A stretch of 53,116 bases of DNA from a virus (IMGVR_UViG_3300038321_000021:1-53116); one strand, 5' to 3'. Numbered from the stretch's first letter, positions 9,637 through 51,665 are shown. Notes: generated by a model from the sequence alone, not told the origin. Made by a program: numbers and translations.

Positions 9637-9667
9637 GTTCTCCATTAAAGACCGTGTTTTTTTCGCG
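9637..9667 (-). promoter_or_regulatory. Promoter-like motif, divergent instance (CGCGAAAAAAACACGGTCTTTAATGGAGAAC on minus strand)
   Basis: Shares CGCGAAAA..ACAC..TTWATGGA with the 30-nt motif family. Lies upstream of the 9360..9599 gene. Confidence 0.4.
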
Positions 9668-11693: not shown

Positions 11694-11720
11694 TTCATAA
11701 TAGTGGTTGTAAATCTTGCG
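11694..11720 (-). promoter_or_regulatory. Promoter-like motif, class B
   Basis: Minus strand CGCAAGATTTACAACCACTATTATGAAA, directly upstream of the SD of 11519..11677. Confidence 0.4.
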
Positions 11721-12650: not shown

Positions 12651-12681
12651 TTTCTCCATAATATAAGTTGTAAATTTCGCG
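12651..12681 (-). promoter_or_regulatory. Promoter-like motif, class B
   Basis: Minus strand CGCGAAATTTACAACTTATATTATGGAGAAA, immediately after hairpin 12692..12709. Confidence 0.4.
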
Positions 12682-12883: not shown

Positions 12884-12911
12884 TTTCATAATAGAGAGTG
12901 TAAATTATGCG
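12884..12911 (-). promoter_or_regulatory. Promoter-like motif, class B
   Basis: Minus strand CGCATAATTTACACTCTCTATTATGAAA, upstream of the SD of 12701..12871. Confidence 0.4.
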
Positions 12912-13584: not shown

Positions 13585-13620
13585 TCTTATTCCCCTTTCA
13601 ATAAACAATTTAATTAGTTC

Positions 13621-13647
13621 CATAAAAGAGAGTGTTATTCGTGCGGA
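13621..13647 (-). promoter_or_regulatory. Promoter-like motif, class B (overlaps the 3' end of the upstream ORF)
   Basis: Minus strand CCGCACGAATAACACTCTCTTTTATGG resembles the 12884..12911 instance. Confidence 0.3.
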
Positions 13648-32301: not shown

Positions 32302-32760
32302 TTATTTTTCGACTTTATCAACAACGGTACTTCTGTATGCGACCTTACCGGAGTCATAAATTCCGTTTTTTAGTTGGTTCATGTTATAACCTTGATCGGC
32401 AAGGGCCATGAATACTCCAACTTCTCCTCGTTTAGCTACAAATCGCACAACTTTACCAGATGGTGATGTTAAGTCGGAAACTTGTTCGTTCATTAGAGAA
32501 GCCATTTTTTTGTTATAAGAATTAATGGTGGCCGCACTTAGTTTACCTGATTTATTAACAGCGTTTGGGTCTTTCATTAACTCGTTGGCATATTTCATTA
32601 ATTCTTTCGAAGATTTTTTCCTGGCTTTATCTGTTATCTTGTCGGTGTTTTTCTTGACCCATTTGTGATCTTTTTTAGTAAGATTACCGAGCTGGGCTTG
32701 GGTTCTTCGTACACCCCATTTCATTCCGAGAATACCGTGATGGGCCAATCCATTATCCAT
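32302..32760 (-). CDS. HYG-LGMKWGVR leader protein 1
   Basis: MDNGLAHHGILGMKWGVRR followed by a basic Lys-rich body. Sits between TerL and the portal. Confidence 0.75.
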   Translation of the reverse strand: MDNGLAHHGILGMKWGVRRTQAQLGNLTKKDHKWVKKNTDKITDKARKKSSKELMKYANELMKDPNAVNKSGKLSAATINSYNKKMASLMNEQVSDLTSPSGKVVRFVAKRGEVGVFMALADQGYNMNQLKNGIYDSGKVAYRSTVVDKVEK

Positions 32761-34534: not shown

Positions 34535-35050
34535 TTATCCCTTAAGTTCTTTAATGGCTAACGCTATAGACAACGCAGAACCCGTTAAAGCAAGTGTAGT
34601 CCCAGCAACATCTAATGTTTTTTTGGTAAAATCTCGCCCCTTTGAAATACTCGGTGCGATTTCGGGTGCAAACAAAGTATTATACTGTTTCTCTAAAAGC
34701 TCACGATTGATGCGGTCACGCATTTCTTTATCCGTCATTTTAGATAGGTCCATTTTTTGTTTAGTGGATCTCGGACGAGTTTCTTTTTCTATATTTCGCA
34801 TTTGTTTAACTAGATCAGAACTTGTATCGACTGTTCTTTTTTTGCGTTCTATGTCTTCTTTAACCCACCGTTTCGGATCGGGTTTACTGGTATCTATCCT
34901 AGAATCTTTTTTTTTAGATAGATTAGTTTGAATATCTCGATCATAACGTTTTTTACCAGTTGGTGTAAGAGTTCCGTCTTTGTTCTGGTAACGTCTTACA
35001 CCCCATTTCATACCGAGGACACCGTAATGTTTTAGTTCGTTATTATTCAT
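34535..35050 (-). CDS. HYG-LGMKWGVR leader protein 2 (basic, C-terminal hydrophobic segment)
   Basis: Start set to MNNNELKHYGVLGMKWGVRR behind SD GAGGAGGAAATTCAAA. C-terminus VAGTTLALTGSALSIALAI. Confidence 0.75.
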   Translation of the reverse strand: MNNNELKHYGVLGMKWGVRRYQNKDGTLTPTGKKRYDRDIQTNLSKKKDSRIDTSKPDPKRWVKEDIERKKRTVDTSSDLVKQMRNIEKETRPRSTKQKMDLSKMTDKEMRDRINRELLEKQYNTLFAPEIAPSISKGRDFTKKTLDVAGTTLALTGSALSIALAIKELKG

Positions 35051-35706: not shown

Positions 35707-36141
35707 TTATTTATGCCTCCATGGGCAGGTATCATTTTTAGTTCGCTCAATCGGAGCTTTAATCAACAGATTTTCGTCGCCATAGTGAATTGCGTTATGA
35801 GTTGGATGAGTGGTAGAGATTAAGTATTCTGGATTTAACAGAAACCCGCTTTGAGTCACGATGTCTTTTGGCAGAATCGGATTCATGTGATGTATATAAA
35901 TCTTTCCTCTAATCTCATAACCTTCAATGCCAAGGTCACAACCGTTATCTCTCACAATCACAAAATCGCGAACGGCTTTCCATTCAGGCGACTTATAAAA
36001 GTTCTGGTTAATGAATCTATCAAATCCAAATGTCTCTTCTCCAACAGCTCCATTGAGTTTTAGATATTGGTATCGTTCCTCAAATGTTTGTAACTTGGAT
36101 AGTTCTGAATATGTCCTAATCATCTGAGTCACCTTGTCCAC
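35707..36141 (-). CDS. Packaging-associated HNH endonuclease
   Basis: VRDNGCDLGIEGYEIRGKIYIHHMNPI...THPTHNAIHYG. Position upstream of the terminase. Confidence 0.8.
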   Translation of the reverse strand: MDKVTQMIRTYSELSKLQTFEERYQYLKLNGAVGEETFGFDRFINQNFYKSPEWKAVRDFVIVRDNGCDLGIEGYEIRGKIYIHHMNPILPKDIVTQSGFLLNPEYLISTTHPTHNAIHYGDENLLIKAPIERTKNDTCPWRHK

Positions 36142-36451
36142 TATAGTTTCTCATAGCGTCAAGAGCATTTGTATAAAGCTCTTCAATTCTTTGCGCCGAC
36201 TGTAACGATTGTGTTTTTGCTTCAATCAACTCTTTCTGTTTCTCGAGAATTTCCTTTTCGATTTTCTCTTTGGTTGAGCCAAGCTTTAAGTAATGTGTGA
36301 TGACCTGAGAAGAAGCAGTTCCTTCTAATAACTGTTTCTCAGCAAGGTCCACGGCCAAGGACACTAGCTGATTCTCCCTGGCTTCCGGAGATAAAGCCGG
36401 TCTCATCTTTCTCGAAGAATCATAAGAGGTTACAGCCTTAGCTTTCTTCAT
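36116..36451 (-). CDS. Putative small terminase subunit / packaging accessory protein
   Basis: 111 aa, helical. LAEKQLLEGTASSQVITHYLKLGS motif. The call rests on position and size only. Confidence 0.35.
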   Translation of the reverse strand: MKKAKAVTSYDSSRKMRPALSPEARENQLVSLAVDLAEKQLLEGTASSQVITHYLKLGSTKEKIEKEILEKQKELIEAKTQSLQSAQRIEELYTNALDAMRNYSGQGDSDD

Positions 36452-36491
36452 CCTTACTGCCTCCTCTCGATTAAATATGATTTGGTTATGA

Positions 36492-37154
36492 TTATGTTTG
36501 TCTTTTTAGTTCCCGTATACTTTGTCGGGTTACTGGTTTTATTGAAATTACTTCCAGACTATCTTGTCGGTCGAATATGATGGACGGAACACGAGATATA
36601 ATTCCGGCATCGGCATCATCGATCATCATGTTATAACCTAAATCGGAAAGACTTTTTAAATATTTTTCTCTAACTTCGGAATTCGATGCCACTCCCAATG
36701 CTAATGAATTTTTATATAATCGAGCCTTTTCGTCATAGGTTTTAAGTTGATCTATTTTAGCTTTGATTTTATCTGGGGATGAAAAAACATTATACTGAGC
36801 TTCCGAGTTAGCTAATGCTTTTTTAAAATCATCATCGGAGTCAAGAAGTTTTATGAATTCATCAACTCTAACTTTCATCGAAGGAGCGACTAGATCTTTA
36901 GTTACTTTAAAAGTCATATTATATGCCGCTTGATTGAATGCGCTTCCTCTACGCATATATCCAAGAGCATCTTTTTTATCTATCGAAACAAAAGCATGTC
37001 CTTCTTTGTTTTTTTCAGAATCTGTAGCCGCCGTTCTATAAATCGTTGCTCCTTTTTTTATAGTGAAACCGTCTTTTCGAGATCCGATTTTATCCGCTTT
37101 TCTAACTCCCCACTTCATACCAAGGACTCCGTAGTGGGTTAATTCATTATCCAT
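36492..37154 (-). CDS. HYG-LGMKWGVR leader protein 3
   Basis: Start set to MDNELTHYGVLGMKWGVRK behind SD GAGGAGG. The track N-terminus (TTG at 37301) has no SD and a non-coding look. Confidence 0.75.
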   Translation of the reverse strand: MDNELTHYGVLGMKWGVRKADKIGSRKDGFTIKKGATIYRTAATDSEKNKEGHAFVSIDKKDALGYMRRGSAFNQAAYNMTFKVTKDLVAPSMKVRVDEFIKLLDSDDDFKKALANSEAQYNVFSSPDKIKAKIDQLKTYDEKARLYKNSLALGVASNSEVREKYLKSLSDLGYNMMIDDADAGIISRVPSIIFDRQDSLEVISIKPVTRQSIRELKRQT

Positions 37155-37351
37155 AATAATTACTGCCTCCTCTCGGTTAAATATTGTATGGTTCTCGTAT
37201 TGTTTCATGGGGGTTACATATAGTTTTGCATAGCATTTAAAAGAACTCACAAAGCCGACTAAAACCTTTTGAAAGGAGAATGAAAGAAATGAAGAAGTCA
37301 ACCTTGTGAGCTCTTTTAAATGCCATGCTGAGTAAACGCTTTCCTAAATAT

Positions 37352-37417
37352 CACCCCCGGGGAATTTTTAATGAGGGCGGCGATGACGGAGGGGGTGCGA
37401 TTTTTGCGACACCCCCC
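37352..37417. other. GC-rich palindromic / hairpin element (cos/pac candidate)
   Basis: CACCCCCGGGG (contains the 8-bp palindrome CCCCGGGG), then GGGCGGCGATGACGGA, then the hairpin GGGGGTGCGatttttGCGACACCCCC. All of this sits in an otherwise AT-rich 484-bp intergenic region upstream of the packaging genes. Confidence 0.35.
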
Positions 37418-37482
37418 TATATGTTCCGTCACCAAGAGCCGCAAACGTCTCGTCTTTGGAAATCTTCTAGAACAATCATTTA

Positions 37483-37690
37483 TTTCTAAAATAATTTCCG
37501 TTTAAACGAATGAAAAATAGTATGCGTTTAGGTACTTGCCGCTTGTCTTGCCGCCTTCTTATAGATGTTTCTAAAATAATTTCCGTTTAAACGAATGATA
37601 AATAGTATGCGTTTAAACGAATGATAAATAGTATGCGTTTAGGTACTTGCCGCTTGTCTTACCACCTTCTTATAGATGTTTCTAAAATCG
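37483..37690. repeat. Tandem duplication (85-bp unit x ~2.3, with a nested 26-bp unit x3)
   Basis: The unit starting TTTCTAAAATAATTTCCGTTTAAACGAATGA recurs at 37483 and 37568, and partially at 37679. The 26-mer GTTTAAACGAATGAWAAATAGTATGC occurs at 37500, 37585 and 37611. Each unit includes a copy of the last ~45 nt of CDS 37639..37890. Confidence 0.85.
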
Positions 37691-37890
37691 TATTTAATAA
37701 TTTCATCAATTGCTCTTTCAACTTCCAAATCGTTTTCTTCTTCTGATAATTGATCTGAAGTTCGAGCAATTCTTCCTAAGTAAGCACAAGAATCATAACC
37801 TTTTTCTACATCGAACAGGAACCAGGAAGTGAACTGTTCAAATGGATCGTAGGGGTTATCAAATGTTGTTAACATACATCTGCTTTTCAT
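37639..37890 (-). CDS. Hypothetical conserved small protein
   Basis: 83 aa. LTTFDNPYDPFEQFTSWFLFD...GY pattern. SD AAAGGAG. Confidence 0.65.
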   Translation of the reverse strand: MKSRCMLTTFDNPYDPFEQFTSWFLFDVEKGYDSCAYLGRIARTSDQLSEEENDLEVERAIDEIIKYDFRNIYKKVVRQAAST

Positions 37891-37897
37891 AATCAGA

Positions 37898-40747
37898 TCA
37901 CTCCTTTCCTTTCAAGTATTTTAATACTGTGGTCGACGATACACCAAGAGCATTGGCTATGTCTTTAGTTGTGTAACCAGAAGCTTTCATAGATGCAATT
38001 CGATTAATCTTAGCTGTGCTCAAAGAATTAGTGGTTCTCGGTGTGGCTCGCTGTCTAAGATCATCTATATCGACGTTATTGAGAATCTGGGTAAGTCTGT
38101 TTTCACTAATAGCACCGGCTTGAATAGCTTCCCATTCACGGTCAGATATTGTAACGGGTAACCTCTTGGCACCGACAATAGCCCGCGCCTTAGTTAACTC
38201 TTGTTGACCGAGTTTCTTTATTTCATTACGAGTTATGTCAGGGTTAGCCTGCTTTTTAGCATTGATGGCGGCATTAGCCATCAACTGGGCCTGTCTCTCA
38301 CGAGGTGCGTTTTTAAGGGCCACGTTAAGCTGGGACATAAGGTGGTCTACTTCTTCTTGATAAACTTTTTTAGCAGAGGAGGAGTACTCTATATTACCAG
38401 CCGTAACCATCTCCTTACGAGCCTGGTTGCCTAGGGCCTTCATCCGGTTGGCATATTCAGCGTAAACTCTTTCTGCCGGGGTGTTAGCGTCGGATACTAG
38501 TGTAAAGGCGTCGTCGGTTTCGGCCATCTTGGTAGATTGCTGTGTTCTAGTTTTTACTTTTCCTGTTTTGTCCACATATGTTTCCGCTGGTTTGTAAACG
38601 TAAGCACTTTTTGGTAAGGTTGGATCATACCAATCTTTATCCGCCTTATTGGCGACTCTATTGTATAGTAGAGCTCCTTCAGGACGAGTTGGATCGTACC
38701 AAGCCTTGTCTTTTGTATTAATTTTTGGACTGCCTGTTACTTTTAGTCTTGGTTCTTGTGATTTAGCTCTCGAGATTAAAGTAGCTGCTCCTTCTCTGTA
38801 TCGACCCTCTTTGTCATAGCTACCTTGATATTTTTTCTTAAGAGACGTTATATTGTTGTCAATCTCACTTTGTTTATAATCCAATTTATGTTTTTCAGCA
38901 TCGATAACCACCATGCTATGACGAACAGCTTTTGCTAATTCGTCTTGAGTGGCTCCTCTTAAAGTCATATCCGTAATTAGATTCGAAGCTTTACCCATTT
39001 CGGTTTGAGTATTACTCATAACCTTAATTTTTTTACCGTGACTATTATAATATTGGTCTCCTTTTTTTACAGTGCCGTAGCTCATTTTTGGGTCAAAATC
39101 ATCCAACCCATGTTTCGGGTCCATTCTAGTAGATGTGATTTTAACTTTACCCCCAGTGGGGATGACCATAACGGTATCACCATCAAAGTCGGCGCCAGAT
39201 AAACGATTAGCAACTTTACTGTTAATTCCGATAGCATCCGCTGGAGTGTTTCCTAAAATCCTCCGAGCTTCTGCTTGTTTATTATTAACGGTTAAGATTG
39301 GAATTTCAAACGTTCCACCATGAGGAAATCGTATCAAAGCAACTTGTTCCCCCGGTTCGAAGTTAGGAGCATAAACTTCGTTGTCTTTCATAGAGGTGAT
39401 AGGAAGTATTACCTGATACCTCTGACGGGGAAGGGCTGCCGCTTGTAGATGAATAGCCGCTGAATCGCAATCATCCGAAAACTTTTTTAACAAAACTTTC
39501 TTCAGCGTCGGATTCGGAAGTGACATAATTTCATCAAACTCTGCTTGTTTGTCGGCCGATGCTAGGTTGAGCTGTTTTTCTATCAAAGTTTTACTCTGTT
39601 TGGAAAGAAACTGAGAGGGAAGATTTTTGCTCCATTCGTCCCAATCGCCTTCTTCGGCTCTTTTATTGATTAAAGATAGTTGACGTTTCCCATCCTTGTC
39701 GATGTAATAACTTTGACCTCCTGCTTTAATTAGAGAACCGAAAGGATTGTCTGGATCTTTTTCAATGTTCTTTAGCACGTCACCTTTAGGAGTTCCTTGT
39801 TTTTTGTTGGTATTAAAAATAGCATCAACTCCATCTGGCATATTATCGGAGTATACAGCCATTCCTTTTATATATTTATTATCATCCACTAGAATACGAA
39901 CTTGTGCGTAGTGGGAGTTTCCTAAAGAAAGATCATCTACTCCTCTTCGAATCTCGACTACGCCATCTTTGTCATTTCCGCCTTCTTCCGCATAACGAAT
40001 CTTAATACGATTAGAATCCATACTCTTCGGATAGACAAAGGTATCAAAAGTGTCACCACCATCATGGGAAATATAATCTCGAAGAGAATGCACATTTTCG
40101 AGATTATAGATTTCTTTATGCTCGGTTCCCGGAGGACAGAGAACTTGGATATTAGTTTGTTTTCCGGGGTTTGTAACTTGGGGAACGCCGCCGCCATATA
40201 GTTCGTAACCCTCCATCTCTAAAATATAAAGAGCTTGTTTCATTTTTTCTCTAGAAATATTACCCAGCTCTCGTTCAACACCAACGCCAACATCGATCAT
40301 TCCTTTAGTGTCTACTTGTTCTTTGAGAAAATCGGCTACTTTTTTAGCTTGGTTCATACGGGCTTCGGAATTCTCATTTAACAAAGAGCGTACAGACGAA
40401 TCATTTTTATAACCCATCTTTTCAGCAATCTCATTCAGACTGTATCCTTTTTCTCGCAAACCTTTTGCAGTGTCAACTTGTAGCGACCTTCGCTCTGCGT
40501 TTGCTAAACTCACTTGTGTCCTAAATTGAGTCGAATCCAATCCCATAGATTTAGCAATTGCCATGTCGCCTTTCCAGGTCTTGCCGTCGTCATCTGTAAA
40601 AGTGAAGTTTTCTTTTCGAAGTTCATCCACACGACTCAAAAAATCACCGCTACGTTGAAAAGGGTTTTCGCCAGAACCCCAAGGATAACGCCCAGAACGT
40701 TTTGGCATACCATAATGTTTTAAAATATCTTCAGCAATGGGATTCAT
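37898..40747 (-). CDS. Single-polypeptide two-barrel DNA-dependent RNA polymerase (YonO-like) with N- and C-terminal HTH-like segments
   Basis: Beta-like barrel motif KYIKGMAVYSDNMPDGVDAIFNTN (aa 291-314). Beta-prime-like VALIRFPHGGTFEIPILTV...AIGINSKVANRLSGADFDGDTVMVIP (aa 468-530; ADFDGD codons at 39176..39193). HTH-like GYSLNEIAEKMGYKNDSSVRSLL and GYTTKDIANALGVSSTTVLKYLKG. Confidence 0.75.
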   Translation of the reverse strand: MNPIAEDILKHYGMPKRSGRYPWGSGENPFQRSGDFLSRVDELRKENFTFTDDDGKTWKGDMAIAKSMGLDSTQFRTQVSLANAERRSLQVDTAKGLREKGYSLNEIAEKMGYKNDSSVRSLLNENSEARMNQAKKVADFLKEQVDTKGMIDVGVGVERELGNISREKMKQALYILEMEGYELYGGGVPQVTNPGKQTNIQVLCPPGTEHKEIYNLENVHSLRDYISHDGGDTFDTFVYPKSMDSNRIKIRYAEEGGNDKDGVVEIRRGVDDLSLGNSHYAQVRILVDDNKYIKGMAVYSDNMPDGVDAIFNTNKKQGTPKGDVLKNIEKDPDNPFGSLIKAGGQSYYIDKDGKRQLSLINKRAEEGDWDEWSKNLPSQFLSKQSKTLIEKQLNLASADKQAEFDEIMSLPNPTLKKVLLKKFSDDCDSAAIHLQAAALPRQRYQVILPITSMKDNEVYAPNFEPGEQVALIRFPHGGTFEIPILTVNNKQAEARRILGNTPADAIGINSKVANRLSGADFDGDTVMVIPTGGKVKITSTRMDPKHGLDDFDPKMSYGTVKKGDQYYNSHGKKIKVMSNTQTEMGKASNLITDMTLRGATQDELAKAVRHSMVVIDAEKHKLDYKQSEIDNNITSLKKKYQGSYDKEGRYREGAATLISRAKSQEPRLKVTGSPKINTKDKAWYDPTRPEGALLYNRVANKADKDWYDPTLPKSAYVYKPAETYVDKTGKVKTRTQQSTKMAETDDAFTLVSDANTPAERVYAEYANRMKALGNQARKEMVTAGNIEYSSSAKKVYQEEVDHLMSQLNVALKNAPRERQAQLMANAAINAKKQANPDITRNEIKKLGQQELTKARAIVGAKRLPVTISDREWEAIQAGAISENRLTQILNNVDIDDLRQRATPRTTNSLSTAKINRIASMKASGYTTKDIANALGVSSTTVLKYLKGKE

Positions 40748-40750
40748 CTT

Positions 40751-41308
40751 TTAACCCTCCTCTGCTCTTATTTTTGATATCAACTTATCGAAGGTGATAA
40801 TCTTATCAATAATCGGAACTAGATCCTCTGCCGTCGGTGCATGATGTAAAATCTCGTCAGATTGATAAATTCGCAACTCGATCTCGATATCCGATGGTTT
40901 GGTTCTATACTCTAAACAAAAAAGAGCAGCGTATACTTCGAGTTGTTCCATTCGTGCTGGGGTAACCCCAGATTTATAATCGTGTATTCTAAGTAAATTA
41001 TTTTTAAAAGATATCGCGTCGGTTGTGCCAAAACAGTTCTCCGAATAGAACAGAGGTTGTTCGACGGTCATTCTAAACCCGATAGCGTCATTTACATACA
41101 TGTTCAGAGTTTTTCTAGATTTAGGCAATTTCTGTCCAAGTCTGATGCACTGAGCCGCAAAATCGTGAAGCATCGTTCCTTTTTGTGCCGCTGTGAATTT
41201 GGAATATGATTCAATTAATTTAGATTCATCGTAATTAACCCAATGATATTTACTAGCACCAAGAAATGCATGTTGCCCTTCAAGGTTTAAATGCTTGTTG
41301 AAGTTCAT
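40751..41308 (-). CDS. PD-(D/E)xK nuclease (RecB/YqaJ-like exonuclease candidate)
   Basis: Start set to MNFNKHLNLEGQHAF behind SD AGAGGAGG. GTTDAISF...LRIHDYKSG core. Confidence 0.6.
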   Translation of the reverse strand: MNFNKHLNLEGQHAFLGASKYHWVNYDESKLIESYSKFTAAQKGTMLHDFAAQCIRLGQKLPKSRKTLNMYVNDAIGFRMTVEQPLFYSENCFGTTDAISFKNNLLRIHDYKSGVTPARMEQLEVYAALFCLEYRTKPSDIEIELRIYQSDEILHHAPTAEDLVPIIDKIITFDKLISKIRAEEG

Positions 41309-41585
41309 CCAATACCTCCTCTTTATTTTCTGGACATATAAATCTTGAGAATGACATCTCATCCATACGCCCGACATAATATTCCTGATTCGGTTGTTTC
41401 TTGGCACCCTTATATTTTTTACATTCCAGGGTAGCCCACTTGTCATCGTGCAAAACTAATAGATCGGGAATTCCTTGAATATAACCCGAATCAAGTTTCA
41501 TAACCATGCATCCAGGGAACATCGTTTTTAATTCTTTAATAAGACTTGATTGAAAATCTTTTTCTAGTTTAGAACCTGTAGCCAT
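41280..41585 (-). CDS. VRR-NUC / restriction-endonuclease-fold nuclease (resolvase candidate)
   Basis: Start set to MATGSKLEKDF behind SD GAAAGGAGG. GIPDLLVLHDDKWATLECKKYKG = PD...ExK. Confidence 0.6.
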   Translation of the reverse strand: MATGSKLEKDFQSSLIKELKTMFPGCMVMKLDSGYIQGIPDLLVLHDDKWATLECKKYKGAKKQPNQEYYVGRMDEMSFSRFICPENKEEVLDELQQAFKP

Positions 41586-41656
41586 AAGTAGGCCTCCTTT
41601 CCTGTTTTTAGACAAACGAAAAAGAAAAAGTAAACGCCGGTCGCGTTTTATTCTTC

Positions 41657-41687
41657 TCTCTTCATAAAAGGGCATGTTTTTTTCGCG
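41657..41687 (-). promoter_or_regulatory. Promoter-like motif, divergent instance
   Basis: Minus strand CGCGAAAAAAACATGCCCTTTTATGAAGAGA closely resembles the 9637..9667 instance. Lies upstream of the nuclease genes. Confidence 0.4.
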
Positions 41688-41737
41688 TGGCTGTGATTGA
41701 GCAAAAAAAATGTGAAAATATACTGTTTTTACACTCG

Positions 41738-42067
41738 TGGCCAAATGCCCACTTATTTTGGCCATATCTATATATATCCTTAATCTTTTTATCACAGTTA
41801 ATAGAGAATAAAAGTGGGCAAGTGGGCTTTTCGTCCGAATAATTTTTCAAATCGGAGCAAATCGCCCAAAAACACCCAAAAAACGCCCAAAAAGGGCCGT
41901 TTTGAGAAAATGGACCCAAAATAAAAAGCCCACTTTCGTTTTTAAAAGTGGGCTTTTAGCCCACTTATTTGGCCAAAAAACCAAAAAATCGTCCGAACAC
42001 TCTCCAAAAATCAGCCCAATTTTTCACAAAACTCAAAAAGCCCACTTTGCAAAAATTAAAAGTGGGC
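41738..42067. promoter_or_regulatory. Iteron / operator array: 8 copies of GCCCACTT (both orientations) plus phased A-tracts
   Basis: GCCCACTT at 41747, 41928, 41959 and 42040. AAGTGGGC at 41812, 41820 (tandem), 41946 and 42060. Two pairs form hairpin-capable inverted repeats. CGCCCAAAAA / CACCCAAAAAA / CGCCCAAAAA repeat at 41861..41895. Confidence 0.7.
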
Positions 42068-42071
42068 AGAA

Positions 42072-42080
42072 ATTATATCA
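42072..42080 (-). promoter_or_regulatory. Extended -10 promoter candidate (TGATATAAT) firing into the iteron array
   Basis: Minus strand TGATATAAT. No good -35. The inverted repeat GCCCACTTT...AAAGTGGGC begins a few nt downstream. Confidence 0.35.
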
Positions 42081-42118
42081 ATTTTTAAAGGTTTACGGAC
42101 GAAATTTGCAAAAAGAAA

Positions 42119-42136
42119 GAGTCCTTGTTAGGACTC
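42119..42136 (-). terminator. Cassette hairpin plus T-run
   Basis: Minus strand GAGTCCTAACAAGGACTCTTTCTTTTT. Contains the stop of 42128..42415. Confidence 0.6.
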
Positions 42137-42415
42137 CTTCCATTCTTTTAATAACATTCTCATAATCTCTTTTACGGATTCTGATTGTTCGCTACGTTCT
42201 ATTAATCGATTTATATGAGCGTAATAGTCATCGGCTTGTTCCATATTACCAATTCGTCCCTCGATCATACTCACGGTCGATTCGCGAATTATTCCTAAAT
42301 CGCTCCGTTTCATGTCACGAGCTATATGATATTGGCCTATGTTTAGTAATGCCCTTATTGCTTTCATATAACTTCGATTAATTTCAGCTTGAGTTCTAAA
42401 AATCTCAAATCCCAT
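42128..42415 (-). CDS. Small hypothetical protein (95 aa)
   Basis: Start set to MGFEIFRTQAEINR behind SD AAAGGAGGAATTAATT. Ends ...EWKES with the stop in the hairpin. Confidence 0.6.
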   Translation of the reverse strand: MGFEIFRTQAEINRSYMKAIRALLNIGQYHIARDMKRSDLGIIRESTVSMIEGRIGNMEQADDYYAHINRLIERSEQSESVKEIMRMLLKEWKES

Positions 42416-42438
42416 AATTAATTCCTCCTTTATTATTA

Positions 42439-42469
42439 GTTTCCATAACAGGAGGTGTATGTTTAGCGC
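42439..42469 (-). promoter_or_regulatory. Promoter-like motif, class A
   Basis: Minus strand GCGCTAAACATACACCTCCTGTTATGGAAAC. Confidence 0.5.
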
Positions 42470-42477
42470 AAAAAGAA

Positions 42478-42494
42478 GAGGGGATGAACCCCTC
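42478..42494 (-). terminator. Cassette-position hairpin, different stem sequence
   Basis: Minus strand GAGGGGTTCATCCCCTC followed by TTCTTTTT. Confidence 0.5.
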
Positions 42495-42638
42495 ATTTTG
42501 ATATCCATATGACTGATGTTAAATCATCCATTATATCAATTTGATAAGTATCTCCTCTATCTTCTAAAAATTTGGTTGCTATTTCCTTCGTTGCAAAAGG
42601 TACTTCCATTCCATCTTTAAAAAATGCTCCATAGCTTT

Positions 42639-42827
42639 CTAAAATTGCACTAAAATTGCACGGTCTTTTGAATCATCCATTAAATAGTTTTTCATTATTT
42701 TTTCCAAGGTATTACTCTTTAATTTTTTATTAAGTAATACTGCCGTTGTTAAAATAACAATAGAACCTCCAACAGATAACACAATAATTTTATGCTCCTC
42801 ATAAAACTTTTTTACTTTTTTAAACAT
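42639..42827 (-). CDS. Small membrane protein (62 aa)
   Basis: TM IIVLSVGGSIVILTTAVLL. SD GAAAGGAGAAAAATC. Confidence 0.6.
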   Translation of the reverse strand: MFKKVKKFYEEHKIIVLSVGGSIVILTTAVLLNKKLKSNTLEKIMKNYLMDDSKDRAILVQF

Positions 42828-42851
42828 GATTTTTCTCCTTTCAAAAATATA

Positions 42852-42881
42852 GTTTCCATAATAGAGTATGTTATTATTGCG
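42852..42881 (-). promoter_or_regulatory. Promoter-like motif, class A (degenerate)
   Basis: Minus strand CGCAATAATAACATACTCTATTATGGAAAC. Confidence 0.4.
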
Positions 42882-42908
42882 TAAAAAATCACATAAAAAT
42901 AAAAGAAA

Positions 42909-42927
42909 GAGCCCTTGTTAGAGGCTC
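42909..42927 (-). terminator. Cassette hairpin variant plus T-run
   Basis: Minus strand GAGCCTCTAACAAGGGCTCTTTCTTTT. Confidence 0.5.
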
Positions 42928-42934
42928 AATCTTT

Positions 42935-43147
42935 TTACGGTTTGTTTTGATATTTTTTTACTAAAGCTTCGATATCATTATCTTTTTTACTTTGTTCGAT
43001 ATCAAGCTTATGTTTTGCAGCATCAACGACTATCCTACTATGACGGATTGATCTACTCATTTCTTCCTTTGTCGCGCCTCTTGATATCATATCTGTAATC
43101 AGATTGGAAATTTCGTCTATCTCTTTTGTACTTTTCACACTATTCAT
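42935..43147 (-). CDS. Small protein paralogous to RNAP residues ~586-643
   Basis: Start set to MNSVKSTKE behind SD GAAAGGAGAAAAGAAA. ISNLITDMISRGATKEEMSRSIRHSRIVVDAAKHKLDIEQSKKDNDIEALVKKYQ aligns with ASNLITDMTLRGATQDELAKAVRHSMVVIDAEKHKLDYKQSEIDNNITSLKKKYQ. Confidence 0.65.
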   Translation of the reverse strand: MNSVKSTKEIDEISNLITDMISRGATKEEMSRSIRHSRIVVDAAKHKLDIEQSKKDNDIEALVKKYQNKP

Positions 43148-43179
43148 TTTCTTTTCTCCTTTCAAAATATAAAAAGAAA

Positions 43180-43197
43180 GAGTCCTTGTTCGGACTC
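43180..43197 (-). terminator. Cassette hairpin plus T-run
   Basis: Minus strand GAGTCCGAACAAGGACTCTTTCTTTTT. Overlaps the TGA of 43196..43393. Confidence 0.6.
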
Positions 43198-43393
43198 AAA
43201 TTCTTTTACCATTATTAAATTTAGATTTGATTTTTTCAACAATCATTTCTCGATTACTGACAATATAACTTCCACCTATCAGAACCGCATAAACTGCCAC
43301 ATTAAGGATAATAATTTCCTTTCTATGTATTTTATTAAATTCTTTTCTAGGTTCCTTTACCATTGTTTTATAATCCTGAAACATTTCTTTCAT
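43196..43393 (-). CDS. Small membrane protein (65 aa)
   Basis: TM IIILNVAVYAVLIGGSYIV. SD AAAGGAGGAAATGAAAA. Confidence 0.6.
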   Translation of the reverse strand: MKEMFQDYKTMVKEPRKEFNKIHRKEIIILNVAVYAVLIGGSYIVSNREMIVEKIKSKFNNGKRI

Positions 43394-43408
43394 TTTTCAT
43401 TTCCTCCT

Positions 43409-43438
43409 TTTAATAGTGGTTTCCATAATAGGAGGTGT
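43409..43438 (-). promoter_or_regulatory. Promoter-like motif, class A (consensus instance)
   Basis: Minus strand CGCGAAAATTACACCTCCTATTATGGAAAC, directly after hairpin 43459..43477. Confidence 0.5.
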
Positions 43439-43458
43439 AATTTTCGCGTAAAAAGAAA

Positions 43459-43477
43459 GAGCCCTTGTTTAGGACTC
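43459..43477 (-). terminator. Cassette hairpin plus T-run
   Basis: Minus strand GAGTCCTAAACAAGGGCTCTTTCTTTTT. Contains the stop of 43469..43753. Confidence 0.6.
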
Positions 43478-43753
43478 CTCCTTTTTTGTTTTAATACTTT
43501 TTTTAATAAGTAAAAAACTAATAACAGCGATTACTCCCGAAATGCAACCAACTGTAAGATATTTGTTTTTAGTAAAATTAGATCCTGTTTGGTAATCCAA
43601 CGACACGACCTCGATTAAATTATCTCTAGCTGTACCAACTATTTTAGTACCATCTAAATTTTTACAATCGAAATCCACCGCTGCCTCCGCTAGTTCTCTA
43701 AACTTACTGCCATCCAAGTTGCTTGCAAATTTTCTAAATTTTTTCTCTGTCAT
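43469..43753 (-). CDS. Small protein with C-terminal TM anchor (94 aa)
   Basis: Start set to MTEKKFRKF behind SD GAAAGGAGAAAATGAG. TM VGCISGVIAVISFLLI. Ends ...KKEES with the stop in the hairpin. Confidence 0.6.
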   Translation of the reverse strand: MTEKKFRKFASNLDGSKFRELAEAAVDFDCKNLDGTKIVGTARDNLIEVVSLDYQTGSNFTKNKYLTVGCISGVIAVISFLLIKKSIKTKKEES

Positions 43754-43778
43754 CTCATTTTCTCCTTTCAAAAATATA

Positions 43779-43808
43779 GTTTCCATAACAGGAGGTGTAA
43801 TGTTAGCG
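43779..43808 (-). promoter_or_regulatory. Promoter-like motif, class A
   Basis: Minus strand CGCTAACATTACACCTCCTGTTATGGAAAC. Confidence 0.5.
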
Positions 43809-43868
43809 TATACATAAATATAACCCACGATTGTTATCCAAAAGCGGGTTATAAATATGTACTTATCG

Positions 43869-43991
43869 TTAACTATTATTTCTTAGATACCTAATCAGTA
43901 TCCAGATGAGCCATAGTCCGCCGGTTAACATAACTAGAATAAAATCTAGAAGTATACCAAATATACTACGCTTTTTCGTTCCTCTACTCAT
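43869..43991 (-). CDS. Small membrane protein (40 aa) translationally coupled to nrdD, not in supplied track
   Basis: ATGA overlap with the nrdD stop. MSRGTKKRSIFGILLDFILVMLTGGLWLIWILIRYLRNNS. Confidence 0.5.
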   Translation of the reverse strand: MSRGTKKRSIFGILLDFILVMLTGGLWLIWILIRYLRNNS

Positions 43992-46039
43992 AATTTTACC
44001 TCCTTATTTACGAATTTGTAAATCTCACTAACACCTACAAATCTCTCGTCAATATTTTTAATCCTGTTTCTAACAATGAGGGTAGGGGCTTGTATGATTT
44101 TGAGACTTGCTACAAGTTCTGGTTTGTCTTCTGCTAAAATTTTTACAAAATTGATTCCTGCGTTATTTAAAATCTTTTCAGCCTGGATACAATTAGGGCA
44201 AGTTTTTGTGCCAAATAAAGTAATGTCGTTGCGACAAGAAGCATCCATATCTATACGAGAAGTCGTATACACCTGTCGGTCTTTAAACTCCTGTACTTTT
44301 CCGTCATTCCAATTTTGGACCGGTCGATAATAACCAGTGATGCGACTGTAAATTTCTGTCTTCTCACCACAATCCGGACACAGGTCAACCTCCCCATTCA
44401 AATATCCGTGGTTCTTACAAATAGAGTAAGTGGGGGAGAGGGTGTAATAAGGAAGTTTATAGTTTTCAGCGATTTTACGAACTAGATTAGCAGCGGCTTT
44501 CCAATCTGGAAGCTTCTCACCAAGGAAGGCATGGAACACGGTGCCGGATGTGTATAGGGTCTGAAGTTCATCCTGGATATCAAGTGCTGAGAAAACATCA
44601 TCAGTGTAACCGACAGGAAGATGAGTGGAGTTGGTATAATAAGGAGTTCCGTTCTCGTTAGCAGTGATGATATCAGGATATTGCTTCTTATCGGACCTCG
44701 CAAAGCGATATGCGGTAGACTCAGCAGGGGTAGCCTCCAGATTATAAAGATCGCCATAGAGTTCCTGATAGTCGCTAAGTCGTTCCCTCATATGATTAAG
44801 AACCTCTTTTGCAAACTTTTGAACCCCCGGAGTAGACAAATCTTTGTGTAGCCACTTGGCATTTAGACCAGCTTCGTTCATACCCACGAGACCAATAGTA
44901 GAGAAGTGGTTATCAAACGTCCCTAAATATTGCTTAGTGTAAGGATAGAGTCCGGCATTCAGAAGCTTAGTGATAAATGTTCGTTTAATTTTGAGAGAGC
45001 GAGCCGAAATATCCATTAATTTATCTAACTTAGAATAGAAATCCTTTTCGTCCGAAGCCAGATAAGCGATTCTCGGCAAGTTAATAGTAACTACACCAAC
45101 TGAACCAGTGGACTCACCAGAGCCAAAGAATCCGCCAGACTTTTTGCGTAGCTCCCGCAGGTCAAGTCTAAGACGACAACACATGGACCGCACATCGTTG
45201 GGCTCCATATCTGAATTAACATAGTTTGAGAAATATGGAGTACCGTACTTAGCCGTCATTTCAAATAGGAGTTTATTGTTTTCTGTTTCACTCCAGTTAA
45301 AATCCTTCGTGATTGAGTAGGTGGGGATAGGGTATTGGAATCCGCGTCCGTGGGCATCCCCTTCGATCATGATCTCAATGAAGGCTTTATTAACCATGTC
45401 CATTTCCTTCTGACAATCGCCATAGGTGAAATCCATCTCCTTTCCGCCAACAATAGCAGGGAGGTTGGCCAGGTCGTTTGGAACTGTCCAGTCCAGAGTA
45501 ATATTACAGAAAGGTGCCTGCGTCCCCCAACGTGATGGAGTGTTAAGGCCAAACACGAAGGACTGTACACATTGCTTGATTTCTTTTTGGGTTAAGTTAT
45601 CCACTTTAACAAACGGTGCTAGGTATGTGTCAAAGGATGAAAATGCCTGAGCTCCCGCCCATTCGTTCTGCATAATGCCGATAAAGTTAACCATCTGATT
45701 ACAGAGCGTTGATAAATGACTTGCAGGAGTTGAAGTAATTTTACCAGCTACACCACCAAGTCCTTCTTGAATAAGCTGCTTCAAGCTCCAACCAGCACAA
45801 TAACCTGTTAACATAGACAAATCGTGCAAATGAATTGCAGCGCATTGATGTGCAATGGCAATTTCTCGGTCGTAAACATTCGACAACCAATAGTTAGCAG
45901 TTACAGCTCCGGAATTAGAGAGAATAAGACCCCCAACCGAGTAGCTCACTGTAGAATTCTCTTTTACACGCCAGTCGTTAACATGTATGTAGTCGTCGAC
46001 TAGCTCTTTATAGTTTAAAATATATTCATCATTTCTCAT
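43988..46039 (-). CDS. nrdD: Anaerobic ribonucleoside-triphosphate reductase (class III) fused to a C-terminal glutaredoxin/NrdH-like domain
   Basis: Zn site CKNHGYLNGEVDLCPDCG. Glycyl-radical motif SRITGYYRPV. Then ~90 extra residues with ITLFGTKTCPNCIQAEKIL...APTLIV (thioredoxin fold, CxxC). Confidence 0.9.
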   Translation of the reverse strand: MRNDEYILNYKELVDDYIHVNDWRVKENSTVSYSVGGLILSNSGAVTANYWLSNVYDREIAIAHQCAAIHLHDLSMLTGYCAGWSLKQLIQEGLGGVAGKITSTPASHLSTLCNQMVNFIGIMQNEWAGAQAFSSFDTYLAPFVKVDNLTQKEIKQCVQSFVFGLNTPSRWGTQAPFCNITLDWTVPNDLANLPAIVGGKEMDFTYGDCQKEMDMVNKAFIEIMIEGDAHGRGFQYPIPTYSITKDFNWSETENNKLLFEMTAKYGTPYFSNYVNSDMEPNDVRSMCCRLRLDLRELRKKSGGFFGSGESTGSVGVVTINLPRIAYLASDEKDFYSKLDKLMDISARSLKIKRTFITKLLNAGLYPYTKQYLGTFDNHFSTIGLVGMNEAGLNAKWLHKDLSTPGVQKFAKEVLNHMRERLSDYQELYGDLYNLEATPAESTAYRFARSDKKQYPDIITANENGTPYYTNSTHLPVGYTDDVFSALDIQDELQTLYTSGTVFHAFLGEKLPDWKAAANLVRKIAENYKLPYYTLSPTYSICKNHGYLNGEVDLCPDCGEKTEIYSRITGYYRPVQNWNDGKVQEFKDRQVYTTSRIDMDASCRNDITLFGTKTCPNCIQAEKILNNAGINFVKILAEDKPELVASLKIIQAPTLIVRNRIKNIDERFVGVSEIYKFVNKEVKL

Positions 46040-46088
46040 ATTGAGTTAATGTTCCTTTCCATGTATATATTTTTTTTAGAAAAAGAAA

Positions 46089-46107
46089 GAGCCCTTGTTC
46101 AGGACTC
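46089..46107 (-). terminator. Cassette hairpin plus T-run
   Basis: Minus strand GAGTCCTGAACAAGGGCTCTTTCTTTTT. Contains the TGA stop of 46099..46263. Confidence 0.6.
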
Positions 46108-46263
46108 CTCTTTTAATTGTTTAAGATTTTTGTTCATCCTCCTATAAAAATTGTAGTTACTAATGAGTATATCTCCTAAATCTTTAATGTACGTCACAGC
46201 CTTAATTACCAGATAAAATGGTAAATAAACCAAACCTACCATAAAATATAAGAAATTTTTCAT
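46099..46263 (-). CDS. Small membrane protein (54 aa), not in supplied track
   Basis: MKNFLYFMVGLVYLPFYLVIKAV...LKQLKEES. SD AAAGGAGGATTTTACA. Confidence 0.55.
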   Translation of the reverse strand: MKNFLYFMVGLVYLPFYLVIKAVTYIKDLGDILISNYNFYRRMNKNLKQLKEES

Positions 46264-46289
46264 TGTAAAATCCTCCTTTAATATTATGG

Positions 46290-46319
46290 GTTTCCATAAT
46301 AGGAGGTGTAATTTTCGCG
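46290..46319 (-). promoter_or_regulatory. Promoter-like motif, class A (consensus instance)
   Basis: Minus strand CGCGAAAATTACACCTCCTATTATGGAAAC. Confidence 0.5.
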
Positions 46320-46329
46320 CAGATAATGA

Positions 46330-46617
46330 TTATGAATTTATCCATTCGTAGTACTTCATACCACCTATAACTCCTAAAGTTGGAGCCAGCATTTCAGCGG
46401 CAGTTTTACTCCCAGTGATACCATATACCGCACCTGAGCCAAAACCACTACTAAATAAACCAGCCGCAACTGAAGCTCCTACCTTTAGTATCTTTTCGTT
46501 TCTAGAAGCTCGTTCCTGTTTGGTTTTTGTTGTTCTTTTAGAAGTCGAGGTCCCTCGATCTTTACGAACTCCCCACTTCATTCCTAGCACGCCATAATGT
46601 CTCAATTCGTTATTCAT
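46330..46617 (-). CDS. HYG-LGMKWGVR leader protein 4 (basic linker, Gly-rich hydrophobic C-terminus)
   Basis: Start set to MNNELRHYGVLGMKWGVRK behind SD GGAGGTTTATATT. C-terminus VGASVAAGLFSSGFGSGAVYGI...LGVIGGM. Confidence 0.7.
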   Translation of the reverse strand: MNNELRHYGVLGMKWGVRKDRGTSTSKRTTKTKQERASRNEKILKVGASVAAGLFSSGFGSGAVYGITGSKTAAEMLAPTLGVIGGMKYYEWINS

Positions 46618-47059
46618 AATATAAACCTCCATTTTTAATATCGATAATTCTTTGATTACTGCTGCCGTACATTTTTCCGGCAACTATTTTATCCTGTTCG
46701 AATCTACCGTCAACAATATAATCAGCCATCCTCGCAAGTTGAGTGTGTTTGATTTCTTCGTAGTTAAACCCGGTGTAAATCCATATATCTAAATTTTTAG
46801 GAAGAAGTTTTAAGAGGGAGACACATTCCTCTTGTTGATAGAACGGATCTCCCCCCGATAGCGTTAAACCATCAATATGCTTACATCTCTTAATATCCTT
46901 CGCTAGTTCTTCCAGAGAAATTTCTTTTCCTCCGTTGAAGTCCCATGTTTCTGGGTTTTGACACCCAACACAATGATGAGTGCATCCTTGACAGAATATA
47001 ACATAACGGACACCGTAACCATTAACAAGCGAACAAGATAGGGTTCCTGCTATTCGCAT
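46610..47059 (-). CDS. nrdG: Anaerobic RNR activating protein (radical SAM)
   Basis: Start set to MRIAGTLSCSLVNGYG behind SD AAGGAGG. Cluster CQGCTHHCVGCQNPETW. Confidence 0.85.
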   Translation of the reverse strand: MRIAGTLSCSLVNGYGVRYVIFCQGCTHHCVGCQNPETWDFNGGKEISLEELAKDIKRCKHIDGLTLSGGDPFYQQEECVSLLKLLPKNLDIWIYTGFNYEEIKHTQLARMADYIVDGRFEQDKIVAGKMYGSSNQRIIDIKNGGLYYE

Positions 47060-47072
47060 AGTAACAGCCTCC

Positions 47073-47975: not shown

Positions 47976-47997
47976 CTGAAATCCCCCTTTTTTTCTA

Positions 47998-49311: not shown

Positions 49312-49431
49312 TTATTTTTTCCTCCAATTTCGTTTTTATTTTATCGAGTATGGACTCAAGCGTTTTGCGGGAATTTGGATGAAGTTTAATATATTTTTTA
49401 CGTTGTTCGTACCATTGATTATATTGATAAC

Positions 49432-50106: not shown

Positions 50107-50137
50107 TATTTTTTCTCCTTTCAAATATAAAAAGAAA

Positions 50138-50368: not shown

Positions 50369-50373
50369 TCTCC

Positions 50374-50401
50374 TTTCATAATATGAGGTGTTTTTTTCGC
50401 G
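50374..50401 (-). promoter_or_regulatory. Promoter-like motif, class B
   Basis: Minus strand CGCGAAAAAAACACCTCATATTATGAAA, immediately after the helicase stop. Confidence 0.4.
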
Positions 50402-51628: not shown

Positions 51629-51665
51629 TCATCAACCTCCTTTCGTTTTGAAAATGTTCATTTAA

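Follow-up and report, generated by a model that had tools for sequence, protein, structure and literature searches.

We analysed a 53,116-nucleotide stretch of viral DNA (IMGVR_UViG_3300038321_000021:1-53116, here called the window), whose minus strand carries at 37898..40747 the gene for a candidate single-chain RNA polymerase and, between genes, copies of a conserved motif of about 30 nucleotides (nt) that this enzyme may read as its promoter. The gene is an open reading frame (ORF) of 949 amino acids (aa) in the ORF listing of the window; it opens with ATG and has a GGAGG Shine-Dalgarno sequence 9 nt upstream of that codon. An initial annotation had proposed that this one ORF holds both hallmark segments of the double-psi beta-barrels of cellular RNA polymerases, and every peptide it quoted is present there: KYIKGMAVYSDNMPDGVDAIFNTN at aa 291-314 (39806-39877), VALIRFPHGGTFEIPILTV at aa 469-487, AIGINSKVANRLSGADFDGDTVMVIP at aa 505-530, GYSLNEIAEKMGYKNDSSVRSLL at aa 101-123 in an N-terminal helix-turn-helix (HTH) module, and GYTTKDIANALGVSSTTVLKYLKG at aa 924-947 in a C-terminal one. 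The position it gave for the codons of ADFDGD (aa 519-524, 39176-39193) is exact. The segment it numbered aa 468-530 is also present, but begins at aa 469, so that the numbering was off by one. The features of the gene are as follows, with positions counted from the first letter of the window.

37898..40747, minus strand: predicted RNA polymerase ORF, 949 aa, PHROG 4291 family (PHROG 4291 match over aa 4-948; AlphaFold2 model with Foldseek matches to QDE-1 and RDR2)
40670..40732, minus strand: N-terminal linear motif, aa 6-26, EDILKHYGMPKRSGRYPWGSG, DUF7211-like in its first half (alignment invariance; hhalign)
40319..40456, minus strand: N-terminal HTH, Pfam HTH_3, aa 98-143 (E 6e-6, 26.6 bits, cutoff 23)
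39653..40006, minus strand: predicted first (beta-like) barrel region, about aa 248-365, containing KYIKGMAVYSDNMPDGVDAIFNTN (model strands and invariant residues)
39158..39421, minus strand: predicted second (beta-prime-like) catalytic barrel, about aa 443-530, with R473-F-P475-H476 (model strands; hhalign to the YonO family)
39176..39190, minus strand: DFDGD metal-binding loop, aa 520-524 (five invariant residues, aligned with YonO D535/D537/D539)
37910..38023, minus strand: C-terminal HTH, Pfam HTH_7/HTH_38, aa 909-946 (Pfam scores above cutoffs)

The HTH-like segments that had been noticed near both ends are borne out by Pfam, HTH_3, HTH_7 and HTH_38 all scoring above their gathering thresholds. 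At the C-terminus HTH_7 reaches 31.6 bits (cutoff 23.8, E 1.8e-7) and HTH_38 29.1 bits (cutoff 27, E 8.1e-7), and the module has weak similarity to sigma-70 region 4 (Sigma70_r4_2, E 1.5e-3). In the N-terminal HTH region the alignment consensus contains two G.S(D/N)..IA repeats, and a second HTH-like repeat is probably present at about aa 47-82.

Conservation and family membership

Conservation was assessed in a non-redundant alignment of 102 homologues with 44% mean column identity. Invariant in this alignment are H11, G13, S18, G19, R20 and P22 of the N-terminal motif; K294, G295, P304, G306, D308, N312 and K315 of the beta-like segment; and R473, P475, H476, G478 and D520-F521-D522-G523-D524 of the second barrel. 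Conservation of at least 90% is found at G101, S103, I107, M111, S117, V119, R120 and L123 in the N-terminal HTH and at G924, T926, E929, A931, L934, G935, V936 and T940 in the C-terminal HTH, and the recognition helices of both modules are conserved to the same degree. The barrel motifs exceed chance, as judged from residue invariance in the alignment together with the fold match to solved two-barrel polymerases described below.

PHROG 4291, a family named 'RNA-dependent RNA polymerase', matches the protein over its full length (aa 4-948, E=0, 1259 bits). In tblastn searches homologues with 35-55% identity, nearly all of them full length, were found in 250 phage records; the host genera of these phages are Arthrobacter, Gordonia, Streptomyces, Rhodococcus, Lactococcus (1706/P092-type phages) and Faecalibacterium, and the annotations of the homologues vary from 'HTH DNA-binding domain protein' and 'RNA-dependent RNA polymerase' to hypothetical. 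Identity is 55% to the closest phage record and 84-88% to the closest metagenomic proteins. When 1.84 billion representative proteins were searched with the profile, 1178 clusters (50% identity) were returned at E<=1e-30, and the best 150 of these 1178 clusters all measure 869-1068 aa. No DNA-level relatives of the polymerase gene were found by megablast against 50,697 phage records, the similarity being at the protein level only.

Judged by its sequence, the window protein is a variant within a large family that is already annotated and predicted to be a polymerase. The homologue from Lactococcus phage 1706 (ORF75), which typifies the PHROG 4291 family, was placed among five distant 'YonO-like' families by Ruprich-Robert & Thuriaux 2010 (PMC2919709). 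The family in the actinophage/Lactococcus/Faecalibacterium supercluster was described by Koert et al. 2021 (bioRxiv 10.1101/842583), who reported an HHpred match to Pfam RdRP, an HTH at both ends and a DxDGD loop, and labelled it 'HTH-containing putative RNA polymerase'; promoters and virion location are not discussed in that paper.

The invariance of all catalytic residues in 102 diverse sequences, and the comparable full length kept by the best 150 of more than 1000 clusters, argue for an active enzyme. These data, and the presence in the same phage of a primase-polymerase (PHROG 4210), make it very improbable that the protein is instead a DNA-binding regulator or genome-end-binding protein, whose HTH would bind the motif or cos to control the host polymerase or packaging and whose core would be vestigial or a primase. 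What speaks for such a role is the SEA-PHAGES annotation 'helix-turn-helix DNA binding domain protein' and the fact that the gene adjoins the genome end.

Predicted fold and relation to QDE-1, RDR2 and YonO

Because sequence profiles reach no solved polymerase, an AlphaFold2 model was built from the alignment (mean predicted local distance difference test score, pLDDT, 79.9; predicted TM-score, pTM, 0.71). Whether this model holds double-psi barrels, and whether DFDGD lies in one of them or in an unrelated fold, had been set beforehand as the test of the two-barrel proposal. Double-psi barrels were found: the strands of the first comprise residues 248-251, 263-267, 280-287, 291-300, 309-312 and 347-365, those of the second residues 443-449, 457-459, 468-472, 484-487, 505-508 and 525-530, and the DFDGD loop is positioned in the second barrel. 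When the model was compared with the PDB by Foldseek, the best matches were to QDE-1 (7y7r_A, E 2.5e-6; 2j7n_A, E 3.6e-6; probability 1.00), with maize and Arabidopsis RDR2 next in the ranking (E 6.6e-6 to 8e-4, probability 1.00). Weaker matches were to Pol II Rpb1 and the African swine fever virus (ASFV) RNA polymerase (E ~0.02-0.1) and to the double-psi barrel of the p97 N-domain (E 0.04). A structure search of BFVD returned models of metagenomic phage 'RNA dependent RNA polymerase' proteins (E 3e-7), plus RlpA barrels.

The features of the two-barrel superfamily that are present include two double-psi barrels in the predicted structure, the DxDGD loop, and invariant R473 and P475, the equivalents of Rpb1 R446 and P448. 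For the two basic residues and one acidic residue that the beta-like barrel contributes in this superfamily (Rpb2 K979, K987 and D837), the candidates are K294, which is invariant and lines up with YonO K271, and the likewise invariant D308 and K315. The model thus supports a predicted single-chain polymerase fold with two double-psi barrels.

The initial annotation had taken YonO as the nearer precedent and QDE-1-type enzymes as more distant. The ranking is the reverse, QDE-1/RDR enzymes being the closest detectable relatives both by Foldseek and by a sub-threshold Pfam RdRP match. YonO from SPbeta matches PHROG 8308, not 4291. When our alignment was compared by hhalign with a six-member YonO alignment, the probability was 15% at full length, with only 82 columns aligned around RxPH..DFDGD; restricted to the DFDGD barrel, the comparison gave a probability of 70.6% (P 3.9e-5, 82 columns). 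R473, P475, DFDGD and K294-G295 align with the invariant YonO residues R492, P494, D535/537/539 and K271-G272. In the first barrel only the pairs YIKGMAV/WVKGLLV correspond, and these alone are not significant. Membership of the YonO family was therefore rejected, since neither YonO alone nor the six-member alignment gave a significant full-length relation by hhalign and the PHROG is different. The window protein is like YonO in kind, lies outside the YonO family, and is nearer to QDE-1/RDR.

That the closest solved folds are QDE-1 and RDR2, that there is a weak Pfam RdRP match, and that PHROG 4291 and many GenBank records carry the name of an RNA-dependent RNA polymerase (RdRP) would suit an enzyme making antisense or double-stranded RNA from phage or host transcripts. 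We regard this as highly unlikely. Distant similarity is the only source of the name, single-stranded DNA is a good template for QDE-1 itself, and the characterised phage relatives, YonO and crAss gp66, are DNA-dependent; moreover, the four HTH-type DNA-binding modules, like the conserved DNA motif, suggest that the templates are DNA.

A conserved promoter-like motif in the window

Repeat analysis of the window identified a motif of 27-30 nt with the consensus aCGCGAAAATTACACCTCCTATTATGGA, present in 13 copies on the coding strand and in none on the other strand. It can be generalised as CRCR-N5-WACAY-N3-YTATWRT-RGA (~30 bp). All 13 copies are intergenic, and most come just after the hairpin of an intrinsic terminator; for 11 of them a downstream ORF can be identified, whose start codon follows the motif by 13-45 nt. 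They fall into two groups, at 9.6-14.2 kb and 41.6-50.4 kb, where small early genes and replication genes lie; the structural module has none. Chance would not be expected to produce exact or near-exact copies, shuffled sequences giving an expectation of 0 matches. Copies are located as follows.

41661..41687, minus strand: motif copy with 7 mismatches to the consensus, heading the endonuclease/exonuclease/polymerase operon
42442..42468, minus strand: motif copy, after a terminator hairpin
42855..42881, minus strand: motif copy
43422..43448, minus strand: motif copy, exact consensus CGCGAAAATTACACCTCCTATTATGGA (0 expected in shuffles)
43782..43808, minus strand: motif copy
46293..46319, minus strand: motif copy, exact consensus
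50375..50401, minus strand: motif copy, with the Shine-Dalgarno sequence AGGAG beginning right after it
13619..13645, minus strand: motif copy
12885..12911, minus strand: motif copy, abutted by a Shine-Dalgarno sequence
12655..12681, minus strand: motif copy, followed by about 126 nt without an ORF (12530-12681; the next gene starts at 12529)
11694..11720, minus strand: motif copy, abutted by a Shine-Dalgarno sequence
9641..9667, minus strand: motif copy

The ORF-free stretch of about 126 nt after the copy at 12655-12681, in which Rfam finds nothing, could be a small RNA or a long leader. The terminator hairpins ahead of the motifs are themselves conserved (GAGTCCTAACAAGGGCTC with TTTCTTTTT; minus strand, 50138-50155, 46086-46110, 43180-43197, 42909-42927 and ~12690-12709), and the hairpin core CCTAACAAGG recurs in terminators of Streptomyces phage Scap1 (23369, 24024 and 27167 in that sequence). 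The conserved hairpin may be a termination signal specific to this polymerase.

Related motifs were found in phages that carry a homologue of the polymerase: GTTTTACATACACTATAGTAGAAAG in at least 11 copies in Lactococcus phage 1706, TCGCAGAAAAAACACACCCTATAATGAGACCCC in at least 15 copies in Rhodococcus phage ReqiPepy6, and TCGCAAGTTTTACAnGCnTTATAGTGAGACCCC in 6 copies in Scap1. In all three phages the motif occupies the same place in the genome, after the tail genes; variants noted among the phages are CTATTATGGA, CTATAGTAGA and CTATAATGAG. A degenerate 18-nt core, [AT]ACA-N4-[CT]TAT[AT][AG]T[AG][AG], gave 5, 12, 11 and 2 matches on the coding strand of the four genomes (the window, 1706, ReqiPepy6 and Scap1) and 0 on the other strand, compared with at most 0.55 in shuffles and 0 in a 50-kb SPbeta stretch. 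Across 80 further polymerase-bearing viral loci the core occurred 36 times in the forward and 3 times in the reverse orientation, and its flanks, which the search left unconstrained, read T.CGCGAAAA in these loci.

The motif fits host promoters poorly. It has no conserved -35 element at 16-18 nt, and a Shine-Dalgarno sequence begins right after TATWRT in 1706 and in 3 window copies, so that a start 6-8 nt downstream of the '-10' would cut the Shine-Dalgarno sequence. The motif is kept between phages of high-G+C Actinobacteria and low-G+C Firmicutes, which makes tuning to host sigma factors unlikely. By these sequence features it is probably not a host sigma-70/sigma-A promoter. A set of host-type promoters was also considered: a sigma-70 scan of 36000-53116 showed no enrichment of sigma-70-like sites (54 found versus 51.8 expected), and neither such a set nor a separate late promoter was identified. 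No promoter or proteomic data on the homologues are given by Klyczek et al. 2017.

These observations bear on an alternative, unlikely in our view though a genuine competitor, in which the polymerase is a non-virion enzyme in the style of YonO: the host RNA polymerase would read the early region, the polymerase gene included, from the motif as an unusual sigma-A promoter, and the phage enzyme, made last, would then take over, for example on the structural operon, whose start lies just downstream of the polymerase gene once cos is joined. In favour of this, transcription by YonO is confined to the late genes of SPbeta (PMC5467207), no other large gene separates the polymerase gene from the head module on the circular map, and the motif contains a -10-like hexamer, two copies passing a loose sigma-70 scan. 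On the other hand, no distinct conserved motif was found ahead of the structural module, the core and the non-sigma positions (CGCR, WACAY) are kept across phages of Actinobacteria and Firmicutes, whose promoters differ, and in 1706 and the 3 window copies the Shine-Dalgarno sequence abuts the -10-like element.

A second conserved intergenic motif, ATAGATGTGCTAnCAGACTATACGGGC, occurs in phage 1706 (20467 and 36666) and in the metagenomic relative L017 (2222 and 4242) but neither in the window nor in the actinophages, and may represent a second promoter class in the 1706/L017 sub-lineage.

The N-terminal peptide, DUF7211 proteins and the virion

Residues 1-22 of the polymerase are disordered in the model (pLDDT <50), yet the most strongly conserved residues of the polymerase are among them, the family motif being HYG..SGRYPWGSG. 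The initial annotation had described this N-terminus as leader-like, which agrees both with its family-wide invariance and with the start of four other ORFs in the window. These begin M.NEL.HYGVLGMKWGVR; three of them match Pfam DUF7211 (31-43 bits), the fourth was recognised by repeat analysis and sequence, and three of the four lie in the packaging/head module.

36492..37154, minus strand: DUF7211 protein, 220 aa, MDNELTHYGVLGMKWGVRK.., encoded by the gene that opens the head/packaging module (Pfam E 3e-11, 42.9 bits; PHROG 7502)
34535..35050, minus strand: DUF7211 protein of 171 aa, its gene immediately preceding that of the large terminase (Pfam E 4.2e-8)
32302..32760, minus strand: DUF7211-type protein, 152 aa, MDNGLAHHGILGMKWGVRR, between the terminase and portal genes (repeat analysis; sequence)
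46330..46617, minus strand: DUF7211 protein, 95 aa, in the early region (Pfam E 1.3e-7)

The N-terminus of the 152-aa ORF matches PHROG 35934, 'virion structural protein' (E 5.9e-5). An hhalign comparison of polymerase N-termini with DUF7211 N-termini gave a probability of 94.9% (P 4.8e-8) over 10 columns, D/E-x-x-L-x-H-Y-G-[IV]. Classifying the polymerase N-terminus as a true DUF7211 domain was considered and rejected for want of a Pfam match, and it is here called DUF7211-like only; the polymerase homologue of Avazak scores 12.2 bits against the Pfam model (cutoff 27).

Among relatives, ReqiPepy6 has eight DUF7211-type ORFs, seven of them between TerL and portal, and at least one such ORF stands beside the terminase/portal genes in 27 of the 28 relatives with enough downstream sequence. 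In the original GenBank record of phage 1706, orf75, the polymerase homologue, is labelled 'structural protein'; orf7 of the same phage is also labelled structural and carries a DUF7211-like motif (24 bits). The 1706 labels reportedly come from liquid chromatography-tandem mass spectrometry (LC-MS/MS) of virions, in work by Garneau and colleagues in 2008, and we treat them as one unverified source.

The DUF7211-type peptide is possibly a tag for virion-internal or ejected proteins. For delivery of the enzyme with the virion we see somewhat less than an even chance. The structural label of the 1706 homologue counts against the YonO-style alternative set out above, in which the enzyme is not carried in the particle, while the single source of the virion evidence counts in favour of that alternative.

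Genome context

An exact 99-nt direct repeat at window positions 1-99 and 53018-53116 indicates that the window represents a complete phage genome of about 53,017 bp, assembled as a circle. The genome is unidirectional, as the initial annotation had stated: all ORFs with a family match are on the minus strand and the GC skew stays negative along its whole length. The window genes that were examined encode neither a sigma factor nor a second polymerase of this kind, and the window contains no RNA families at the Rfam gathering threshold and no tRNAs by ARAGORN. The neighbourhood of the polymerase gene is arranged as follows.

41280..41591, minus strand: endonuclease, PHROG 93; the motif copy at 41661 heads the operon, of which this is the first gene (family match; synteny)
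40751..41446, minus strand: exonuclease, PHROG 3953, DUF2800, immediately upstream of the polymerase in the same operon (family match; order the same in relatives)
37639..37890, minus strand: 83-aa ORF directly after the polymerase gene, PHROG 4303 (E 8.4e-37)
37155..37638, strand not applicable: non-coding DNA that separates the polymerase block from the head module (tandem duplication; palindromes rich in G+C, GGGGGGTGTCGCAAAAATCGCACCCCC and CCCCGGGGG)

The order endonuclease-exonuclease-polymerase-small ORF, followed by the genome end, is kept in the relatives examined. Compared by position only, a small ORF lies in the same place in P092, Avazak, ReqiPepy6, 1706, Scap1 and the loci L016 and L017, and the record of ReqiPepy6 notes similarity of its product, gp107, to 1706_gp76. 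The duplication at 37489-37688 comprises the last ~45 nt of the 83-aa ORF and the ~65 nt that follow. In relatives the genome or contig ends 300-550 nt past the polymerase gene, many viral contigs breaking off 300-450 nt beyond it, and the ReqiPepy6 annotation records a 3' cos overhang at this place; by analogy, 37155-37638 probably corresponds to the physical genome ends (cos).

Several other features of the genome were recorded. The primase-polymerase B gene (PHROG 4210; 141-4692, minus strand) is split into parts of 904 aa and 424 aa by an HNH endonuclease ORF at 1408-1962, which suggests a homing-endonuclease insertion giving a two-piece DNA polymerase. Three PHROG 2152 paralogues lie in the early region (6898-7860, 9678-10472 and 11729-12529, minus strand), at least two of them with their own motif copy upstream. 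A 570-aa ORF at 29304-31016 on the minus strand matches both head-maturation-protease and major-head-protein families, and a protease-capsid fusion of this type has been noted for Arthrobacter clusters AM/AU. Genes like those for the anaerobic ribonucleotide reductase NrdD/NrdG are found at 43988-46039 and 46610-47116, and very strong Shine-Dalgarno sites, GAAAGGAGAAAA, occur throughout the window. From the strength of these sites and the NrdD/NrdG genes, the host is probably an anaerobic Firmicute. The closest public homologues are binned in metagenome-assembled genomes of Bacteroidales, Fermentimonas or Dysgonomonadaceae, which is probably mis-binning.

Proposed model

We propose, with a probability of roughly 60%, that the gene encodes an RNA polymerase that is DNA-dependent and self-sufficient and recognises the conserved ~30-nt motif. 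Such a polymerase would need no sigma factor: its terminal HTH modules would place a QDE-1-like core on a phage promoter of ~30 bp. We infer that these modules serve as sigma-independent promoter readers, for which the conservation of the motif across host phyla is indirect support. Transcription would start inside the motif, at the purine after TATWRT, in the manner of T7, a start site we prefer because it fits all copies, including those abutted by a Shine-Dalgarno sequence. The first enzyme molecules would arrive with the virion, and, as the polymerase gene lies behind its own motif copy, such delivery would solve the problem of bootstrapping. The N-terminal HYG..SGRYPWGSG peptide would be the signal for incorporation into the particle.

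Several observations weigh against this proposal. Global TM-scores of the predicted model to QDE-1 are low, 0.27-0.30, so that the domain arrangement differs from that of QDE-1. Searches of all PDB sequences with phmmer and with the 102-sequence profile returned HTH matches only and no polymerase, and the match to Pfam RdRP (PF05183) is below threshold (17.5 bits, cutoff 23.8) and covers aa 511-631 only, starting within the last 20 residues of the second barrel. The motif holds a good -10-like hexamer, TATTAT in the window and TATAAT in ReqiPepy6, and two window copies score 9/12 as TTTACG-16-TATTAT in the sigma-70 scan; the host sigma-A may therefore use the motif, perhaps with the help of a phage activator. 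The 23-kb structural operon (37.1k to 14.3k) has no motif copy ahead of it, so that the proposal does not account for late transcription. The Pfam DUF7211 model (PF23847, cutoff 27 bits) does not match the polymerase N-terminus, the similarity there extending over ~10 residues only. The virion evidence consists of one depositor annotation, that of 1706 orf75, and the 'structural' note in ReqiPepy6 and the 'structural' names in JGI and UniRef were most likely copied from it. Finally, in the literature searched (YonO/RNA polymerase/phage; DFDGD/phage) there is no enzymology or transcript mapping for any member of the PHROG 4291 family.

Significance

Identification of the gene alone adds little, the family being already annotated, predicted to be a polymerase, and present in hundreds of cultured phages of Arthrobacter, Gordonia, Streptomyces, Rhodococcus, Lactococcus and Faecalibacterium. 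What the present analysis adds is a candidate promoter of 27-30 nt, shared by phages whose hosts belong to different phyla, together with a peptide that may target proteins to the virion. If the proposal is true, it would explain how these one-directional phages are transcribed without a sigma factor, and it could provide a compact, portable, host-independent orthogonal transcription system for Gram-positive hosts. The enzyme would also be a small, tractable relative of QDE-1/RDR in which to study promoter recognition by lone two-barrel polymerases, and would rank among the closest prokaryotic-virus relatives of the eukaryotic polymerases of RNA interference.

Comparison with known systems

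In QDE-1 and RDR2, as in the window protein, a single chain holds the two barrels in identical order and DxDGD belongs to the second of them; identity is ~11-12% and TM 0.23-0.30. These eukaryotic enzymes, which function in RNA silencing, have neither HTH modules on their flanks nor the N-terminal motif. YonO is likewise a single-chain phage two-barrel polymerase of similar size (839 aa); inspection of the YonO-family consensus and invariant columns, made on the consensus and not as a Pfam scan, found neither the HYG motif nor HTH signatures. YonO transcribes only late genes of SPbeta, and its promoter is undefined (PMC5467207).

A functional analogy, and only that, can be drawn with T7-type promoters, which are 23-30 bp long and have an A+T-rich element directly before a purine start, as proposed for the motif. 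The core of the T7 promoter is CACTATAGGGAGACC, to which both the 1706 and the Scap1 motif are very similar: the 1706 motif shares the 8-mer CACTATAG with the T7 promoter, and TATAGTGAGACC of the Scap1 motif resembles T7 TATAGGGAGACC. T7 polymerase has an unrelated right-hand fold, and neither 1706 nor Scap1 encodes a T7-type polymerase despite the T7-like motif; the resemblance may be coincidence or convergence.

Precedents for a two-barrel polymerase in the virion are gp66 of the crAss-like phage phi14:2 (bioRxiv 10.1101/2020.03.07.982082) and gp96 of Thermus phage P23-45. Each is a QDE-1-like enzyme with two barrels in a single chain, which enters the cell together with the DNA and carries out early transcription; gp96 is fused to the tape measure protein and P23-45 uses dedicated promoter motifs, whereas gp66 has 2,180 aa and showed no promoter motif common to the early genes. 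The best 50 Foldseek PDB matches of the window protein include neither of them, and their place in the virion is known, whereas that of the window protein is proposed. We put forward tentatively, and with more doubt than confidence, that the family of the window protein represents a third type of virion-delivered two-barrel RNA polymerase, of ~105 kDa, with its own HTH promoter recognition and a T7-like ~30-bp promoter near-unchanged between phages of Actinobacteria and Firmicutes, entering through a DUF7211-type peptide that would be a general capsid-targeting/ejection tag.

The phage 1706 ORF75 family has in common with the window protein the N-terminal motif, the HTH at both ends and the DFDGD core, and shares with the window the gene order of endonuclease, exonuclease, polymerase, small ORF and genome end.

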